Assembly: GCA_038244765.1 (NCBI GenBank)
Contig: JBBRTC010000005.1
Location: 915-64,914, forward strand
From: Candidatus Nanopelagicales bacterium
GTDB lineage: Bacteria; Actinomycetota; Actinomycetes; S36-B12; JBBRLC01
Direction: 5' to 3'
DNA length: 64,000 bases
The position numbers and the translations under genes were made by a program. This document shows, piece by piece, positions 1 through 35,817 of this stretch (position 1 is its first letter; every line of letters starts with the position of its first letter). The notes below the pieces were generated by a model that worked only from the letters and a program-made list of their open reading frames with translations, was not told where the DNA came from and searched no databases.

Positions 1-1172
1 TCGCTGCGCGCGTCTTGCAAGGTGCAGGCGCGGCGATTGCCTCGCCAACGGCTCTTGCCCTTATCGCTACCACCTTCCCGGAAGGCCCTCCGCGCAACCG
101 CGCCTTCGCGGTCTACGCCGCAATGTCTGGTGCCGGCGCCGCCGTCGGACTGATCGCGGGCGGACTTCTCACTGACTACCTGTCGTGGCGATGGGTGTTC
201 TGGGTCAACGTCCCGATTGGACTCTTCGTCGCGTTTGTCGCCCCCCGCGTACTCGGCGAATCAACACCCAAGCCAGGGAAATTCGACCTTCCCGGCGCGA
301 TCCTCGGCACCGTCGGGCTCACCAGTTTGGTGTACGGCATCACCCGAGCATCGACAAGCGGATGGGGCGACACAAAGACGGTCAGCTTTATCGGAATTGG
401 CGCGCTCCTCCTTGTGACCTTCATCATCGTCGAGAGTCGAAGTGCCGAACCGTTGATGCCACTTCGACTGTTTAGTGAACGCAATCGCGCCACGTCGTAC
501 GGAATTGCGCTGGTCGTCGGCGGCGCGATCCTGTCGATGTTCTTCTTCCTGTCGCTGTTTATCCAGGGAATTTTGCAGTACAGCCCGCTCAAGGCTGGGC
601 TGGCATTTCTGCCATTCACATTGGGGATCGTCTTTGGCGCTGGGAGCGCATCACAACTTATTCCTCGCCTACCACCGCGGATGATCGCTGCTCCTGGACT
701 CCTCATCGCGTCCTTCGGCATCTACCTCTTCTCTCGCCTTGAACCCACGTCGACGTACGTCAGCGGACTTCTCATCCCGATGATCATCACTGCAATTGGA
801 ATGGGGCTTACGTTCGTCACGCTCACGCTGACGGCGGTTTCGAGAGTGGAGGAGCGAGACACTGGTATTGCGTCCGGCGTTCTGAACGCGATGCAGCAAA
901 TCGGTGGATCGCTGGGGTTGGCGCTTCTTGCCACGCTGGCCGTGAACGTCACCACGAACAAGGTGATCGAAATTGTCGGCAATGCAGGGGGCAACCCAGC
1001 TGCGGGTCAGGGAGCGGGGGGGTACGCACCAGCGGAGGCTCTCACTAGCGGCTACACCGCGGCCTTCCTCGGCTCATCCATCGCGTTGTTGATCATGAGT
1101 TTCGTCGCGTTCATCGCGATGAACGCACCGAAACAAGAAGCGCCAGTCGCCGTCGCAGCGGCGGCTGCGTAG
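1..1172 (+). CDS. MFS transporter, DHA2 (EmrB/QacA-like) family, 5'-truncated by window edge
   Basis: ORF 15..1172 stays open to the window start. Multiple hydrophobic helices and a typical MFS stretch AAMSGAGAAVGLIAGGLLTDYLSWRWVFWVNVPIGL. Confidence 0.8.
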   Translation, partial: AARVLQGAGAAIASPTALALIATTFPEGPPRNRAFAVYAAMSGAGAAVGLIAGGLLTDYLSWRWVFWVNVPIGLFVAFVAPRVLGESTPKPGKFDLPGAILGTVGLTSLVYGITRASTSGWGDTKTVSFIGIGALLLVTFIIVESRSAEPLMPLRLFSERNRATSYGIALVVGGAILSMFFFLSLFIQGILQYSPLKAGLAFLPFTLGIVFGAGSASQLIPRLPPRMIAAPGLLIASFGIYLFSRLEPTSTYVSGLLIPMIITAIGMGLTFVTLTLTAVSRVEERDTGIASGVLNAMQQIGGSLGLALLATLAVNVTTNKVIEIVGNAGGNPAAGQGAGGYAPAEALTSGYTAAFLGSSIALLIMSFVAFIAMNAPKQEAPVAVAAAAA

Positions 1173-1205
1173 ACGAACCCAACCGGAGTGTCACAGCGCC
1201 GGTAG

Positions 1206-1245
1206 GACGAAGCCCCGCACCTCGAGATGACTGCGGGGCTTCGTC
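1206..1245. terminator. Bidirectional intrinsic-terminator-like hairpin between convergent MFS and hppA genes
   Basis: Perfect 14-bp inverted repeat GACGAAGCCCCGCA / TGCGGGGCTTCGTC with a 12-nt loop. Confidence 0.7.
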
Positions 1246-1285
1246 GTACTAATTGCGATGCGGAACCCAGAAACTGGGCGACGGA

Positions 1286-3649
1286 CTAAACCTCGATCGC
1301 CTCCGGGATCTCCGCGACCGGCTCTTCGCCGACTGTGATCGGACGGGACTTCGACACGAGAACAGCAGCCACAACAATGACCACCGCAGTGGCCGCAATC
1401 GCATAACGCCAGTTGTTCTGCTCTAGCGCCAAGGCGACGACTGCTGGAGCGATCAGCAACGACACCAGGTTCATCACCTTGATGAGCGGGTTAATCGCGG
1501 GACCGGCGGTGTCCTTAAACGGGTCGCCAACCGTGTCACCAATGACAGTCGCCGAGTGAGCCTCAGAACCCTTTCCGCCGAAGTTGCCGTCCTCGACAAA
1601 CTTCTTTGCGTTGTCCCAGGCCCCACCGGAATTGGAGAGGAAGACAGCCATCAAGGTGCCGGTGGCGATCGTCCCAGCGAGGTAGGCACCAAGCGGCCCG
1701 ATACCCAATCCGAAACCAACTGCGATCGGGGTAAAGAGCGCGAGTAGGCCCGGTGTTGCGAGCTCACGGAGCGAGTCACGCGTCACGATGTCGACGACCT
1801 TGCCGTACTCCGGCAACTCCGTGCCTTCCATGATTCCCGGGTGGTCGCGGAACTGGCGACGTACCTCGAAGATCACCGCGCCCGCAGCGCGCGACACCGC
1901 ATTGATGAGGAGGCCCGAGAACAAGAAGACGACGGCTGCACCGACGAGCAGACCGACCAGGTTGCGGGGGTCCGCCACGTTGAGGACACCGCCGTACTGG
2001 GCTTGGTCATTGATCGGCGGAATGACAAGATTCCCGCCCCGGATTGCCGACTGAGTCGCGGTCACCACGGCGTCACGGAATGATCCGAACAGCGCCGTCG
2101 CGGCGAGTACGGCAGTCGCGATCGCGATGCCCTTAGTGATTGCCTTGGTGGTGTTCCCAACGGCGTCGAGGCTGGTCAGGATTTGTGCACCTTCACCCTC
2201 GACATCGCCAGACATCTCTGCGATGCCTTGTGCGTTGTCTGATACTGGGCCAAAGGTGTCCATCGCGACGATGACGCCGACGGTGGTCAACAGACCCGTA
2301 CCGGCGAGGGCAATCGCGAACAGCGACAGCGTGATCGAGCCAGCGCCGAGGAGGAATGCGGCGTACACCGCAGCCCCGATAAGCAGCGCGGAGTACACCG
2401 CTGACTCCAAACCGAGCGACACACCCGCGAGGATCACCGTGGCAGGCCCGGTTAGTGACGACTTGGACACGTCGTCGACAGGCTTTCGGTTGGTCTCGGT
2501 GAAGTAGCCCGTGAGTTGTTGAATCGCGGCCGCAAGCACAATGCCGATGATCACTGCACCGATGGTGAGCAACCGAGGATTGAAGGTGTCGACATCGATA
2601 CCGAGGAACACGCTGGTGTTGCCTTCAAGAACAACACCCTTGAGCTGAGCAGCCGTGGAAGGCAACCACAAGAACGCCGCACCTACGACCATGAGGGCCG
2701 ACACAATCGCGGAGATAAAGAACCCACGGTTGATCGCGGTCATGCCGGAACGATCGCCGGGACGCGGCGAGACGGCGAAAATACCGATGACCGCGGTGAT
2801 GACGCCAATGGCAGGAACGACCAAAGGAAGAACGAGACCGACGTTGCCGAAGGCGGCCTTTCCGAGAATGAGCGCCGCGACCAGCATGACGGCGTACGAC
2901 TCGAACAGGTCCGCTGCCATGCCCGCGCAGTCACCCACGTTGTCACCGACGTTGTCAGCGATCGTGGCCGCGTTGCGCGGGTCGTCCTCAGGGATTCCCT
3001 GCTCGACCTTGCCCACCAGGTCGGCACCCACGTCGGCGGCCTTGGTGAAGATTCCGCCGCCCACACGCATGAACATGGCCAACAGCGCGGCACCGAATCC
3101 GAAGCCCTCCAGCACTGCAGGTGCTTCAGCTTTGTAGATCAACACAACAATGGATACGCCCAGAAGTCCTAGGCCAACGGTGAACATGCCCGCGACGCCG
3201 CCGGTCCGGAAGGCGATCTTCATCGCGCGCTGCTCGCCACCATCGCGGGCCGCCGCTGCGACGCGCACGTTGGCGCGTACCGCCAACCACATACCGACAT
3301 AGCCGGTGACACCGGAGAAGACTGCTCCGACTATGAAGAAGAGAGAACGACCGACTTTTTCGCTTGTCGTGTCCGCCGGAAGGACGAACAACACGAAGAA
3401 GACCAGAACCGCGAAGAACGCGAGCGTCCGGAATTGGCGACTCAGATACGCAGATGCACCTTCCTGAATCGCTGAAGCAATGTTCTTCATGCTCTCGGTG
3501 CCCTCATCAGCGGCGAGAACTTCACGTGCGAGAACAGCGGCTACTAGCAGCGCGAGGACGGCAATGAGCGCCACCACGGCAACCGTGACCAAGTTGCTCC
3601 CGGCGAGTTCGACGCTCACCGCATCAGCGGCGCTTGTCACTCCGGACAT
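1286..3649 (-). CDS. hppA: Membrane-bound H+-translocating pyrophosphatase
   Basis: About 16 TM segments. Motifs GDNVGDCAG and DNAKKFVE, plus GDTVGDPFKDTAGP. ATG at 3649 preceded by AAGGAGA (the maximal ORF runs to 3691). Confidence 0.93.
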   Translation of the reverse strand: MSGVTSAADAVSVELAGSNLVTVAVVALIAVLALLVAAVLAREVLAADEGTESMKNIASAIQEGASAYLSRQFRTLAFFAVLVFFVLFVLPADTTSEKVGRSLFFIVGAVFSGVTGYVGMWLAVRANVRVAAAARDGGEQRAMKIAFRTGGVAGMFTVGLGLLGVSIVVLIYKAEAPAVLEGFGFGAALLAMFMRVGGGIFTKAADVGADLVGKVEQGIPEDDPRNAATIADNVGDNVGDCAGMAADLFESYAVMLVAALILGKAAFGNVGLVLPLVVPAIGVITAVIGIFAVSPRPGDRSGMTAINRGFFISAIVSALMVVGAAFLWLPSTAAQLKGVVLEGNTSVFLGIDVDTFNPRLLTIGAVIIGIVLAAAIQQLTGYFTETNRKPVDDVSKSSLTGPATVILAGVSLGLESAVYSALLIGAAVYAAFLLGAGSITLSLFAIALAGTGLLTTVGVIVAMDTFGPVSDNAQGIAEMSGDVEGEGAQILTSLDAVGNTTKAITKGIAIATAVLAATALFGSFRDAVVTATQSAIRGGNLVIPPINDQAQYGGVLNVADPRNLVGLLVGAAVVFLFSGLLINAVSRAAGAVIFEVRRQFRDHPGIMEGTELPEYGKVVDIVTRDSLRELATPGLLALFTPIAVGFGLGIGPLGAYLAGTIATGTLMAVFLSNSGGAWDNAKKFVEDGNFGGKGSEAHSATVIGDTVGDPFKDTAGPAINPLIKVMNLVSLLIAPAVVALALEQNNWRYAIAATAVVIVVAAVLVSKSRPITVGEEPVAEIPEAIEV

Positions 3650-3972
3650 GCGATCTCCTTGAGACGTTGGCCCGAACCGGGGGATGCGCACGTGGGCGTA
3701 CGCGGGAATCCGGCAGGCGTTTGCGGGGTGTCACGCACTCACCGGACACGAATCCGCGGCCGCAAGAGCGACACCGGGGGCTCCGTGACGATGCCTGGAT
3801 TCCTCGCGAGGAGGCCCGGGCCGTCCGTGACCGGCGCAGTCTACGCAGCGCGACAACGGGCTCACGCCAGGGTCAATCTCGACCCAAATGAGGCCAGTTC
3901 AGCCTCTCACTCGCTGTGACGCTCTCGACCAGGGCTCTTGCTCCCCTGAGCCGTGAGGGCCATGAGTTCAGG

Positions 3973-4419
3973 TCAGGCCGATCGAGGCCAACTCATCACG
4001 ACCTGGGTAGACCCGGGAGTGGATCCCGCTCGGACTTCGTGAGAAGGGATCAAACCGGCAATCACAGCTAGGGACAACGCGTCGGGGTCAGCCAGATCAA
4101 TATCGATAGTTGCTTGTTCGGCGGTGGGACCCGTCTGAGCTGGAGTTGAACCGGTCGGGTCGATACGACCGCCAACATGATCTGCCACCGACACCGTGAA
4201 CTCGTCGGCGTCGTCGGTGAAAGTCACTTCAATTGGAACTACCGAACCTGCGCTGACGTGCCGGCGTACGGCGCGCGAGCAGGCTTCTGCAACGGCGAGG
4301 CGCACGTCATCGAGCAATTCCTCGGAGACCCCACTGCGTCGAGCCGCCACGGCGGCAACGAGTCGCGCCGTGCGCACTTGGTCGGCTCGAGGCGACAGGC
4401 TCATCGATACGTCAGGCAC
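3973..4419 (-). CDS. Anti-sigma regulatory factor (RsbW/SpoIIAB-like Ser kinase fold, ApgA-like)
   Basis: Small HATPase-like protein immediately downstream of the STAS antagonist. N-box-like stretch LAVAEACSRAVRRH. Pairing as in the Streptomyces bldG-apgA locus. Confidence 0.7.
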   Translation of the reverse strand: MPDVSMSLSPRADQVRTARLVAAVAARRSGVSEELLDDVRLAVAEACSRAVRRHVSAGSVVPIEVTFTDDADEFTVSVADHVGGRIDPTGSTPAQTGPTAEQATIDIDLADPDALSLAVIAGLIPSHEVRAGSTPGSTQVVMSWPRSA

Positions 4420-4431
4420 TGCGAGGCCGAA

Positions 4432-4773
4432 TCAATGCGTCGCGGCAAAAGCGTCGGCGAGAGTTGCGTGCAAGGGAATGACTGCGTCAAGACCGGTTAC
4501 CTTGAAGACCTTCGCAATCCGATCCGACGTGACGACGAGCCGCAAAGTGCCTTCGTGATCGCGAACCCGTTTCAGTGCTTTGACGAGGACGCCCAGGCCA
4601 CTGGAGTCGAGAAAGTCCACACCGGTGAGGTCCACGATTACTTGCGGCGAGGGCTGAGATGTCAGCGGTTCGAGCGCCTCATCCAAAGCCGGGGCAGTAA
4701 AGACGTCCACCTCACCCGACGGAGCGACAACAGTGAAGCCAGCCTCCTCGCGGGTGGTCAGAGACAAATCCAC
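4432..4773 (-). CDS. bldG: Anti-sigma factor antagonist (STAS domain), BldG-like
   Basis: MDLSL...GEVDVFTAPAL...GVDFLDSSGLGVLV...LRLV...KVFKVTGL resembles BldG/RsfB-type STAS proteins as I recall them. The conserved phospho-Ser context DFLDSSG is present. Confidence 0.85.
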   Translation of the reverse strand: MDLSLTTREEAGFTVVAPSGEVDVFTAPALDEALEPLTSQPSPQVIVDLTGVDFLDSSGLGVLVKALKRVRDHEGTLRLVVTSDRIAKVFKVTGLDAVIPLHATLADAFAATH

Positions 4774-4940
4774 TGGTACGCCTCCTGCGTCTGTTGCCGA
4801 ACTCTCCTGGGTTCACTCTGGCATACGAGCCTGAGCGGCGAGAGGTTCCGCACGTACTGGCGACCCGAGCCCGGGGCGCCTGGAACCCCCGACGGCATCG
4901 CGAACGCCGACATCGAGGGAGTGGGGGTGAGAATGCGGGG

Positions 4941-8349: not shown

Positions 8350-9162
8350 TCAAACAATCCAGAGGGTCCGGACGAAACCCGCAACAACGGGGACCACCCC
8401 AATCAGCAGAAATGCGGGCAGAAAGCAAAAACCCAGTGGCGCAACCGCTTTGATCCCAATGGCTTTGGCCGCGGACTCCAGCGCACGTCCCCTTTCGCTA
8501 TCAAGATCTTCTGCCAATCTGGCCAACGTTTCCTGTACGGGTGCACCTGTTCGCGCGGTTCGTTCGAATGCGGCAGCCAGTGGAATCAGTTTCCTCCCCG
8601 CGGTGGAATCAACTGACCAACAGGCGGCGGGATCTGCACCTAGATCCATTCTGGCTACGACCGTCGACAGGGTCGTCTTGAGTGGTTCGTCGATCGCATC
8701 GCGCACCGCAGCCGACGCGTCTCTGAGCGTCGCACCGGCCGCCAGGCAGGATCCGAGCAGCATCGCCACCTCCGGAAGCTGCGCCGTCGCTGCCTCCCGT
8801 TCTTGCCGAACTCGGGTGGGTTCCAACTTTGACAACAGGACAGGTCCAAGCGTAAGGATCGCGGCCGCCGCGATCCCCCCGAGGACGCCACCGACGACCA
8901 CAAAGACTCCCGCGCCCAGTGCCAGCGACGAGGCGACGCGATTCCATCCGAGAGATCCGAAATGTCGTCTCCCTTTTATGGCGCCGCCTGTGCGAATGGC
9001 TGGGTCATGACGACTCGCCGCGTGCATCGTCACGGCGACGACGCGCTGGTGGGGACGTGGGTCCGGTGCAGTCCAGACGACGTACGCCGCGAGAGCGAAC
9101 ATCAAGGCGATGACCACTACGGCATCCGACTCTCGACGGTGCGCACGAGGCGCGCCATCCAC
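8350..9162 (-). CDS. Type II secretion system F-family membrane protein (TadC-like, Rv3657c-like)
   Basis: Polytopic membrane protein in the tad operon. Start uncertain: ATG at 9162, or GTG at 9117 overlapping the upstream stop. Confidence 0.72.
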   Translation of the reverse strand: MDGAPRAHRRESDAVVVIALMFALAAYVVWTAPDPRPHQRVVAVTMHAASRHDPAIRTGGAIKGRRHFGSLGWNRVASSLALGAGVFVVVGGVLGGIAAAAILTLGPVLLSKLEPTRVRQEREAATAQLPEVAMLLGSCLAAGATLRDASAAVRDAIDEPLKTTLSTVVARMDLGADPAACWSVDSTAGRKLIPLAAAFERTARTGAPVQETLARLAEDLDSERGRALESAAKAIGIKAVAPLGFCFLPAFLLIGVVPVVAGFVRTLWIV

Positions 9163-33557: not shown

Positions 33558-33574
33558 GACAACTTCTTCACGAC
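33547..33574. repeat. Perfect tandem duplication (2 x 14 nt, AACTTCTTCACGAC) at the nth / tlpA-like junction
   Basis: Read directly from the sequence. Each copy carries a GTGA stop/start overlap on the minus strand. Confidence 0.95.
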
Positions 33575-34413
33575 GATAAGTCCTCAAAGGTCTTCACCAA
33601 TCGCGCGGCTTCTACGGGATCGGTGGGCCCTTCGCCGTACGCGGGACACAATCGCGCAATCGGGCATACCCCGCAGGCCGGTCGCCGCGCGCTACACAAC
33701 CGCCGCCCATGAAAGATCGCTCGATGAGAGAGCAACGTCCATTCCTTGCGCGGAAACAGTTCCATCAGGTCGTACTCAACTTTGACCGGATCCGTCTCGC
33801 TCGTCCACCCAAACCTGCGCGACAGCCTGCCCAGGTGCGTGTCCACAGTGAAGCCGGGTACGTCAAAAGCATTGCCAAGAACCACGTTGGCGGTCTTGCG
33901 ACCGACCCCCGGCAGCGTGACGAGGTCTCTCAACTTGCGCGGAACCTCCCCGCGGTAGCGATCGCAAAGAGCCTGGCCCAGACCGATCAGTGAATTCGCT
34001 TTGGCTCGAAAGAATCCGGTCGATTGAATGAGCGCCTCGAGTTCAGCGCGATCGGCACCGGCGTAGGCGGCTGCATCCGGGTACTGGGCAAACAGGGCGG
34101 GGGTCACCAGATTGACCCGCTTATCGGTGCACTGAGCGGACAAGATTGTGGCCACCAACAGTTCGAGCGGATTGGTGAAGTCGAGTTCGCAATGGGCATC
34201 GGGGTAGAGCGCGGCGAGCTCGCGATTGATACGGCGCGCGCGACGAACCAGGGCGATGCGCGACTCACCCGTGGGCGTCGGCTTTTCACTCGCGATCTCG
34301 CGCGACGACGCTCCCACAGACACGACCTGAGAGTACGTCGTTGTGAGGACCGCAGAGACGTCACCCGTTCGGCTCAAGGTTTGACCAAATCGGCCGATAA
34401 CCCCCAGGGTCAT
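33568..34413 (-). CDS. nth: Endonuclease III
   Basis: HhH motif [13 protein letters not shown] and the Fe-S loop [17 protein letters not shown]. Start uncertain: ATG at 34413 chosen, and the maximal ORF runs to 34596. Confidence 0.9.
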
Positions 34414-34455
34414 CCAGTTGTTCGATCTGGCCCGTGAGATGAGGAGACGATCACC

Positions 34456-35049
34456 ATGACAGCCACGCTGGCCGACACGGCGACCGACGCCGAAACGGAG
34501 GCAGGGATAGCCGACTCCGCTGCCGAGCGCCGCAAGGCTCGAAAAGCTGCTCGCGCCGCCGTACCGCCTCCGGAGCGCGACGCGGCGTACGACCACCTGT
34601 CTCTGGATGACCTTCGGTCCATGAAGGCCGAACTACAGGCCGAAGAGACTCGCGTGTCTTATTGGCGCCGAATTGTGCAAGCGCGCCTCGACCTCATCGG
34701 GTCGCAGGGCCGCGATGGTGAACCAGTCGCGAAACTTCGCGAGGTCCTCGCCGATGCCGCCGGATCGCACCGTCGAATCGCCCACCTTTCAGTCGATCAG
34801 GTTGACGACGTACCCCCCTTGCCCGACCTCAGCGAGTTGTGGGCTCGACAAATCGACCCGTCAAACAAGACCAAATTAGCCAAACTCACCAAAGATCTCA
34901 CGGCAGCCGAACAAGAACTCTCGGTCCTGCGAAACGAACTCTTCCGGCTCATCGATGGGGTCACCCACGAGCTGATTGCCCGCTACCGGGAGGACCCGGG
35001 CCTGGCGTTGGCTATCCTTCCCGGCGACCCCATGCGGCTTCGCCCCTAG
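34456..35049 (+). CDS. RsiG-like protein (candidate c-di-GMP-binding anti-sigma factor)
   Basis: 197 aa, predicted helical. Residues 64-79 [17 protein letters not shown] match E-x3-S-x2-R-x3-Q-x3-D exactly. A second, degenerate copy [14 protein letters not shown] spans residues 152-167 (Q replaced by F). Confidence 0.6.
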
Positions 35050-35142
35050 CCGCTTCGCGTAGCCGCGGCGGCCTTACCGCTGCGCTCGGAGCCTGGGTGC
35101 GAGAGACTGTCGGGCAACCCGAAAGCCTGCGGAAGGACCAAG

Positions 35143-35817
35143 GTGGACGACACCCTGATGGGGGCACCGCTATTCGCGGCGCTCGACGCCGATGCCGCGG
35201 AGGCGCTTCACTCGTCCATGGACGAGGTGACGCTAGAAAGAGGCGACGTGATCTTCGCCGAAGGCGAGCCCGGCGATCGGCTCTACGTCGTCATCGATGG
35301 CAAGGTCAAACTTGGTCACGCCTCAGGGGACGGGCGGGAGTCTCTGCTTGCCGTCCTCGGCCCGGGCGAAATGTTTGGCGAACTGTCGCTTTTCGACCCA
35401 GGTGCTCGTACGGCGACCGCAACCGCGCTCACCGAGGCGACGGTCGCGGGGTTGGGCCGCCCGGCTCTGAGGCCTTGGCTCACCGGCCGGCCAGAAGTTG
35501 CCGAGACTCTGCTCACGGCGCTGGCCCAGCGGCTTCGGCGTACCAACGACGCCATGGCTGATCTCGTGTTCACCGACGTACCTGGTCGGGTGGCCAAGGC
35601 GTTGCTCGACCTGGGTGAGAAGTTCGGCGAGTCCTCGCCGGAAGGCCTGGCGGTCACTCATGACTTGACTCAAGAGGAACTCGCACAACTCGTGGGCGCA
35701 TCTCGGGAAACCGTCAACAAAGCCCTGGCCGATTTTGCCTCGCGTGGGTGGCTCCAACTCGAGTCGCGCTCGGTCGTACTCCTTGACGTCGAACGCCTCC
35801 GCCGCCGCGCTGGCTAA
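35143..35817 (+). CDS. crp: cAMP receptor protein (Crp/Fnr family, Rv3676/GlxR-like)
   Basis: Resembles mycobacterial CRP as recalled: FAEGEPGDRLY, MFGELS.FDPG.RT, TDVPGRVAK, THDLTQEE.AQLVGASRETVNKALADFA.RGW. GTG start giving VDD. Confidence 0.95.
   Translation: MDDTLMGAPLFAALDADAAEALHSSMDEVTLERGDVIFAEGEPGDRLYVVIDGKVKLGHASGDGRESLLAVLGPGEMFGELSLFDPGARTATATALTEATVAGLGRPALRPWLTGRPEVAETLLTALAQRLRRTNDAMADLVFTDVPGRVAKALLDLGEKFGESSPEGLAVTHDLTQEELAQLVGASRETVNKALADFASRGWLQLESRSVVLLDVERLRRRAG

Follow-up and report, generated by a model that had tools for sequence, protein, structure and literature searches.

Among known anti-sigma factors, RsiG is to our knowledge alone in requiring cyclic di-GMP (c-di-GMP). 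In Streptomyces venezuelae it is a twin-motif monomer that, armed with c-di-GMP, acts as the anti-sigma factor of WhiG (vnz_19430; AmfC/SCO4184 in S. coelicolor; PDB 6PFJ, 6PFV; PMC7005675). In phylogenomic surveys each genome has one RsiG copy. The lone exception is Acel_1994 of Acidothermus cellulolyticus 11B, which the 2021 survey reports as its one 'second copy of RsiG' and treats as an isolated case (PMC8325347). Here we analyse a 64,000-nucleotide (nt) stretch of DNA from a Candidatus Nanopelagicales bacterium (the window), in which a gene that we call rsiG2 lies between nth and crp and encodes a twin-motif protein of this family. Our analysis shows that such a second RsiG clade is common: it is present in 195 of the 401 genomes of the class that we sampled, mostly from uncultured freshwater and soil lineages, and in most lineages its gene carries a predicted WhiG-type promoter. 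In the literature that we searched we found no description of a widespread second RsiG clade, of its coexistence with canonical RsiG, of the nth-crp position, of the WhiG-type promoter or of a WhiG-RsiG2 feedback loop, and nothing on RsiG together with Crp. On balance, we lean to the view that RsiG2 is a WhiG-induced, c-di-GMP-armed feedback anti-sigma factor, an old paralogue of RsiG that has been inherited together with WhiG.

RsiG2 is a genuine member of the RsiG family. It scores 56.2 bits against Pfam PF22802 (RsiG-like; gathering cut-off 27), and Pfam already labels proteins of this type 'RsiG-like'; no NCBIfam model was found for it. Of the PDB sequences, S. venezuelae RsiG (6pfj/6pfv, E-value 1.5e–9, residues 25–180) matches best, in an alignment that spans both helices and the linker, and the next-best matches are single-motif Rubrobacter-type RsiGs (E-value 4.7e–5). 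Profile-profile comparison of the rsiG2 clade with canonical RsiGs by hhalign gave a probability of 98.2% over both helices. An AlphaFold2 model built on 25 homologues (mean predicted local distance difference test score, pLDDT, 74.9) places residues 50–83 and 138–179 in long helices with pLDDT 86–93, and its sole PDB match by Foldseek with an E-value below 0.001 is RsiG 6pfv (probability 1.0, template modelling (TM) scores 0.49/0.57). The predicted fold is an antiparallel two-helix coiled coil with one E-x3-S-x2-R-x3-(Q/H/F)-x3-D motif per helix.

A sequence-only reading of this locus had proposed an RsiG-like protein on the strength of its motifs, and the similarity beyond the motifs and the modelled fold described above bear this out. 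It had reported an exact E-x3-S-x2-R-x3-Q-x3-D match at residues 64–79, which the sequence confirms; the coordinates stand, and only the string quoted with them was wrong, since its 17 letters start one residue early, at residue 63. A second motif at residues 152–167 with Phe in place of Gln (Phe163) was likewise read correctly. The residue numbers of motif 1 are the same as in S. venezuelae RsiG (PMC7005675). In a six-frame translation of the source genome (2.38 Mb, open frames of at least 100 residues), the pattern E-x3-S-x2-R-x3-[QHF]-x3-D has five matches, of which two are in rsiG2, two in a canonical rsiG (contig C11) and the last at another site. The E-S-R-Q-D motif of rsiG2 is not a chance match.

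RsiG2 is not the orthologue of S. venezuelae RsiG. It belongs to a deep, diverged paralogous clade, since the same genome (2.38 Mb assembled in 147 contigs, 88% complete) holds a more canonical RsiG on contig C11. This C11 protein carries the motifs EADLSFLRRMLHGRID and EQEVSITRGQVQKVAD, matches 6pfj over its full length (E-value 5e–31 versus 1.5e–9 for RsiG2) and is 26% identical to RsiG2. In a maximum-likelihood tree of 35 rsiG2-related proteins and nine canonical RsiGs, the two groups are separated by a long branch with 100/100 support. We could not root the paralogues with single-motif RsiGs, because both clades match those equally weakly. The C11 gene abuts the stop codon of an upstream gene for a 299-residue protein and is not preceded by a WhiG-type promoter.

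The window holds no WhiG gene, as had been observed from the sequence, and the search of the genome for a partner sigma factor and diguanylate cyclases that had been proposed found both. One WhiG/FliA-family sigma gene scores above the NCBIfam cut-off (contig C31, 282 bits versus 189.6 for TIGR02479), and there are six GGDEF proteins, whose genes likewise lie off the contig that holds the window. The C31 protein matches S. venezuelae WhiG with an E-value of 2.9e–115 (about 388 bits) and keeps L50, H51, K57, Y58, G61, R62, T235, L236, Y239, E240 and L242, residues that touch c-di-GMP and RsiG in the crystal structure (PMC7005675). Flagellin was not found in the genome; PilB and PilT homologues are present.

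We next compared the distribution of the three proteins. In the same order (31 genomes), 19 genomes carry RsiG-type genes and 18 carry WhiG, and the two sets coincide but for one 64%-complete genome; four WhiG-bearing genomes of the order carry the crp-linked type only. The 401 sampled genomes of the class were searched with a profile of the clade, a profile of canonical RsiG and TIGR02479. Both paralogues are found together with WhiG in 150 genomes, and in 12 more, most of them less than 90% complete, both occur with no WhiG match. The rsiG2 clade is the only RsiG type in 27 genomes with WhiG and in 6 genomes without it, all below 85% completeness. Canonical RsiG alone accompanies WhiG in 43 genomes, including Streptomyces-like genomes of 7–10 Mb; WhiG stands alone in 4, and 159 genomes have none of the three. 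WhiG is thus present in 177 of the 195 genomes with the rsiG2 clade, and where both paralogues occur, almost every genome has just one WhiG. There are also independent co-losses within otherwise positive families (genomes G017 and G030), and these argue for a functional tie between the RsiG clade and WhiG.

The upstream region of rsiG2 contains a predicted WhiG promoter with –35 CTCAAG (34373..34378), a 14-nt spacer and –10 GCCGATAA (34393..34400), in agreement with the consensus published for WhiG of actinobacteria (CTCA-N16-17-GCCGA / T(A/C)AA-N16-GCCGATAA; bioRxiv 10.64898/2026.01.14.699351). The strict pattern is found upstream of orthologues at 34 of 78 loci (mean 0.46 and maximum 3 in shuffled sequences; 0 on the reverse strand), and the pattern with one mismatch, as used in 10.64898/2026.01.14.699351, at 50 of 78 (2.1 in shuffles). 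Positions left free in the search pattern are also kept, namely A5 (47/49), G6 (39/49) and the T after GCCGA (35/49). The lineages with the conserved promoter are Nanopelagicales-like, Acidothermaceae and Frankiales-like. Upstream regions of canonical rsiG from 13 related genomes gave a weak match at two loci. As for the choice of pattern, GCCGATAA alone, searched strictly, was found upstream of only 4 of the 78 orthologues, and the search was relaxed to the published CTCA/T(A/C)AA-N16-17-GCCGA form. A region inside the gene was tried as a control and rejected: it gave nine spurious matches, all from conserved L..DL..AE codons and lacking the T/A after GCCGA. Because this region is not neutral, shuffles and the reverse strand served as controls. 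A close relative (L043) differs at nine of 171 nt, with two changes in the spacer and both the –35 and the –10 element intact, and is too similar for a footprint.

The extended motif CTCAAG-N14-15-GCCGA(T/A) has nine sites in the source genome, compared with a mean of 2.3 for scrambled patterns. Besides rsiG2, genes with such a site 57–139 nt ahead of them are pilT, a type IV pilin gene, a Roadblock-like gene of the pilus cluster, a WhiB-family gene and genes for two secreted proteins. This set agrees with published predictions for unicellular actinobacteria, in which type IV pili and regulators are expected to be under the control of WhiG (PMC8325347), and WhiG probably drives pili in the non-flagellated source organism.

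Some of these sites deserve description in their own right. The type IV pilus cluster lies on contig C43 (1–9000, minus strand), with pilB at about 3481–4899, pilT at about 1857–2825 and a pilin (GFTLIELLVV) near 280; three coding-strand CTCAAG-N14-15-GCCGA(T/A) sites are at 8722, 3269 and 346. On contig C1 (1014, plus strand), the WhiG-type promoter CTCAAGAAATCCACCCAATTGGCCGATA lies 138 nt upstream of the WhiB-family gene (Pfam Whib, 85 bits). A weaker match, CTCA-N17-GCCGAAA, was seen at C3:61015 (minus strand), 41 nt upstream of a gene for a 926-residue membrane protein with GGDEF and EAL-like regions; it would fit the published finding that diguanylate cyclase and phosphodiesterase genes are common WhiG targets.

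Together, these observations suggest a feedback loop. c-di-GMP would arm RsiG2 through both helix motifs, and the armed protein would bind and inhibit WhiG. Since rsiG2, unlike the canonical rsiG of the same genome, has a WhiG-type promoter, WhiG in its active state would transcribe it from 34373..34400 and so induce its own inhibitor. The outcome would be negative feedback of the FliA-to-FlgM kind. Type IV pilus genes of the non-flagellated source organism have promoters of this type too, so it is probably the expression of pili that the loop tunes. The comparisons establish that RsiG2 belongs to the family and is a paralogue, and that its synteny, its co-occurrence with WhiG, its motifs and the promoter sequence are conserved; we infer from them that the protein binds c-di-GMP and WhiG, that the promoter is used and that the loop exists.

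Several observations weigh against this view. About one-third of the orthologous loci have no WhiG promoter recognisable with the patterns used. In motif 2, Phe163 replaces the guanine-stacking Gln/His, and stacking by Phe is plausible. The structural model is only moderately confident (mean pLDDT 74.9), and its TM scores to RsiG are 0.49–0.57. Two contact positions have changed (R58 to A58 and D142 to Q132), and the α2–α4 linker, which contacts sigma-2 in RsiG, is very different, with its invariant PPLPDL...W block. The co-occurrence with WhiG is partly phylogenetic inertia, as the counts are uncorrected for phylogeny, and the need for two RsiG-type partners per WhiG in 150 of the 401 genomes is unexplained.

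We also examined how far the contact residues are kept, by mapping the list in PMC7005675 through the alignment of RsiG2 to 6pfj. The ligand-reading residues of both motifs are all kept except for the Q-to-F change. Y69 is kept, the hydrophobic pocket I80/V95/L99 corresponds to L80/V91/L94, R54 is kept and R57 is K57, and the sigma-4 contacts I183/Y187/L197/L198 correspond to L173/Y177/I187/L188. The kept contact residues are mostly invariant or nearly so across the clade. For RsiG-WhiG2 pairs, confidently predicted interfaces have been published (10.64898/2026.01.14.699351).

The main rival explanation is that RsiG2 binds c-di-GMP but was re-targeted after duplication, its partner being another group-3 sigma factor, canonical RsiG (as a sink or antagonist) or Crp. 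We consider this possible, although on the unlikely side, and the clade-specific linker leaves it open: the segment that contacts sigma-2 has been replaced by the invariant PPLPDLxxxW block, and RsiG residues D142 and R58 are not kept. The genome also holds two further TIGR02479-related sigma genes that score under the cut-off; 150 of the 401 genomes keep both paralogues for one WhiG, and duplicates are usually kept when functions diverge; and the gene adjoins crp at 77 of 80 loci. On the other hand, the rsiG2 clade is the only RsiG in 27 WhiG-bearing genomes and is essentially never without WhiG in complete genomes, which speaks against a different partner, as does the conservation of Y69 and the sigma-4 contacts. 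One homologue adjoins a WhiG-family sigma gene: in family f59 (locus L157, genome G353), an RsiG-like gene (1246..1989, plus strand) and the gene for a WhiG-family sigma factor (615..1406, minus strand) are divergent neighbours. This sigma factor is 45% identical to the WhiG of the source genome of the window, and its RsiG-like neighbour is of the same broad clade. Crp as the partner is disfavoured by family f55, where the crp linkage is lost and the protein kept; moreover, nth-crp is a conserved backbone position, and adjacency there can be historical. In f55 (locus L155, genome G075; 1504..2232, minus strand) the homologue lies instead between genes for a PilB-like ATPase (T2SSE + MshEN) and a PilT-like ATPase, and its motifs are E-x3-S-x2-R-x3-H-x3-D and E-x3-T-x2-R-x3-F-x3-D. 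Genomes of f55 encode two WhiG-family sigma factors and lack a canonical RsiG.

The sequence-only reading had placed the protein between the twin-motif and single-motif types, and a version of this idea would make RsiG2 an intermediate on the way from twin-motif monomer to single-motif homodimer, with motif 2 decaying and helix 1 alone binding, possibly as a dimer. The lack of the canonical Gln/His in motif 2 and the weak second repeat in Pfam (14 bits) speak for it, and we nevertheless hold it to be very improbable. A large protein collection contains 977 RsiG2 homologues with an E-value of at most 1e–3, and motifs were counted over the best 120 of these 977, all of which carry the PF22802 annotation and nearly all of which are named 'hypothetical protein'. 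In this set the stacking position of motif 1 is Gln in 116 of 117 homologues, while in the 111 with both motifs complete the corresponding position of motif 2 is His in 87, Phe in 24 and Gln in none. This pattern points to purifying selection on motif 2 rather than decay, because E/S/R/D are kept and the variable position is limited to His or Phe, both stackable rings, in 111 of 111. At the stacking position, published RsiGs also accept His (PMC8325347). Both helices and their motifs are kept across the clade, the twin-helix architecture is complete and the alignment to RsiG extends beyond both motifs, whereas single-motif RsiGs have about 85–118 residues and no α5 (PMC8325347). The placement between the two types therefore does not hold, and the alignment indicates a conserved twin-motif His/Phe variant, not a decaying intermediate.

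The clade has features of its own beyond motif 2. An alignment of 25 sequences, 44–86% identical to RsiG2, has 31 invariant columns, and clade invariants that are not found in canonical RsiG comprise SYW in motif 1, the PPLPDLxxxW linker block, a C-terminal block ending in ..LP and a basic N-terminal helix. The linker block (P121–W129 in RsiG2) sits in the linker that in RsiG contacts WhiG sigma-2. The N-terminus of RsiG2 (residues 1–38, 34456..34570) forms a basic Ala/Arg/Lys-rich helix followed by PPPERD and is without a counterpart in canonical RsiG; R26, K30, R33 and P39 of this region are invariant across the clade.

We sampled the synteny of 80 loci from named genome records: crp is the next gene after rsiG2 at 77 of them, and a divergent nth lies ahead of it at 78, the loci without the neighbour being cut by contig ends. 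The records are from Candidatus Nanopelagicales, Acidothermaceae, Frankiales/Frankiaceae, Sporichthyaceae and 'Mycobacteriales' metagenome-assembled genomes (MAGs), and include the cultured Longivirga aurantiaca. The sequence-only reading had noted crp 93 nt downstream on the same strand and seen in this a c-di-GMP sensor next to the cAMP receptor. The adjacency itself holds well beyond this genome, while the functional link between the two messengers does not follow from it: the association of rsiG2 with crp is positional only, and read-through into crp may occur. No intrinsic terminator was found between rsiG2 and crp on the plus strand, and a scan of 34200..35300 for sigma-70 promoters and terminators gave nothing on that strand. 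The predicted folding of the rsiG2-crp spacer is not stronger than that of shuffles (z = –0.8), with no sign of a structured RNA.

On the other side, the mechanically called nth ORF (33568..34596, minus strand, 342 residues, GTG start) is over-extended and overlaps the start and promoter of rsiG2. With the first 100 residues removed from the query, tblastn matches to Nth homologues begin no further upstream than residue 101, and Pfam places the start of the HhH-GPD domain roughly 150 residues from the beginning of the ORF. The true nth start is probably near or below 34350. The weakest explanation, that RsiG2 is a coiled-coil relic with neither ligand nor sigma partner, kept only because it belongs to the transcription unit of crp (as a leader ORF, for instance), can appeal to the tight same-strand linkage with crp and the lack of a detected terminator, and is scarcely credible given 31 invariant columns that include every ligand-contacting residue, homologues kept away from crp and the strict co-occurrence of the clade with WhiG.

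If the feedback reading is true, the WhiG switch of these organisms holds a built-in, c-di-GMP-gated negative feedback that is absent from the Streptomyces model. A bolder extension, which we rate as decidedly doubtful, is that many uncultured Actinomycetes have a two-tier anti-sigma system on one WhiG, with a WhiG-independent canonical RsiG and a WhiG-induced paralogue that respond to different c-di-GMP thresholds, and with read-through from rsiG2 setting the level of Crp. If true, the two-tier system with crp read-through would be a hard-wired link between two second-messenger networks. The fixed place before crp makes a c-di-GMP/cAMP connection cheap to test, the evidence for it being positional only, and the natural His/Phe series at the stacking position offers material for a study of ligand affinity.

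Features of the rsiG2 locus and of the canonical paralogue in the same genome (window positions unless a contig is given)
Feature	Position	Strand	Remarks
nth (endonuclease III), divergent	33568..34350	–	Pfam HhH-GPD and EndIII Fe-S domain; true start uncertain
Predicted WhiG (sigma-28 family) promoter CTCAAGGTTTGACCAAATCGGCCGATAA	34373..34400	+	Ends 56 nt before the rsiG2 ATG
AGGAG, Shine-Dalgarno-like	34442..34446	+	9 nt before the rsiG2 ATG; direct sequence reading
rsiG paralogue (rsiG2)	34456..35049	+	197 residues, open ORF, ATG start; twin-motif RsiG-family protein of the nth-crp-linked clade
Motif 1, helix α1: E64-x3-S68-x2-R71-x3-Q75-x3-D79	34645..34692	+	Exact match
Clade-specific invariant block P121-L-P-D-L-x3-W129	34816..34842	+	Invariant alignment columns; absent in canonical RsiG
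Motif 2, helix α5: E152-x3-S156-x2-R159-x3-F163-x3-D167	34909..34956	+	E/S/R/D kept, Phe163 for Gln/His
crp (cAMP receptor protein)	35143..35817	+	GTG start, 93 nt downstream of rsiG2; Pfam cNMP_binding and HTH_Crp_2
Canonical twin-motif RsiG orthologue	contig C11:46294-46845 (locus L001 ORF 1195..1752)	–	185 residues

Among described proteins, Acel_1994 probably belongs to the same clade as RsiG2. Acidothermus sp. and Acidothermaceae genomes carry members of the nth-crp-linked clade; the proteins that we saw are from Acidothermus sp. MAGs. For Acel_1994 no crp linkage or promoter was reported (PMC8325347). The single-motif RsiGs of Rubrobacter radiotolerans and Thermoleophilia (PDB 7LQ2-7LQ4; PMC8325347) share with RsiG2 a similar α1 helix and its motif, at the E-value of 4.7e–5 given above. 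Their hosts are likewise unicellular, with type IV pilus genes among the predicted targets of their WhiG (PMC8325347). However, these proteins have 84–118 residues and one motif and must dimerise, whereas RsiG2 has both helices in one chain.

Another close system is that of S. venezuelae. RsiG2 is of the same Pfam family as the RsiG of this organism and shares with it the predicted α1/α5 coiled coil with one motif per helix, the C-terminal elements that make contact with WhiG sigma-4 (the E(L/I)xxRYRE block and the hydrophobic pair), and co-occurrence with a WhiG that keeps K57, G61 and R62. It differs in being only about 26% identical, in the Phe (His in most of the clade) that replaces Gln in motif 2, in the PPLPDLxxxW linker and the long basic N-terminal helix, and in its nth-crp position and WhiG-type promoter. 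The Streptomyces-like large genomes in our sample are without the rsiG2 clade.

In its regulatory logic RsiG2 may resemble FlgM of Salmonella and E. coli, the anti-sigma factor of FliA. The fold of FlgM is unrelated, and its control depends on export by the flagellar apparatus rather than on c-di-GMP. In Salmonella and E. coli a sigma-28-dependent promoter drives the gene of the anti-sigma factor; for rsiG2 we infer transcription by WhiG from promoter sequence only. The likeness is that in both cases a sigma-28-family factor would transcribe the gene of its own inhibitor.

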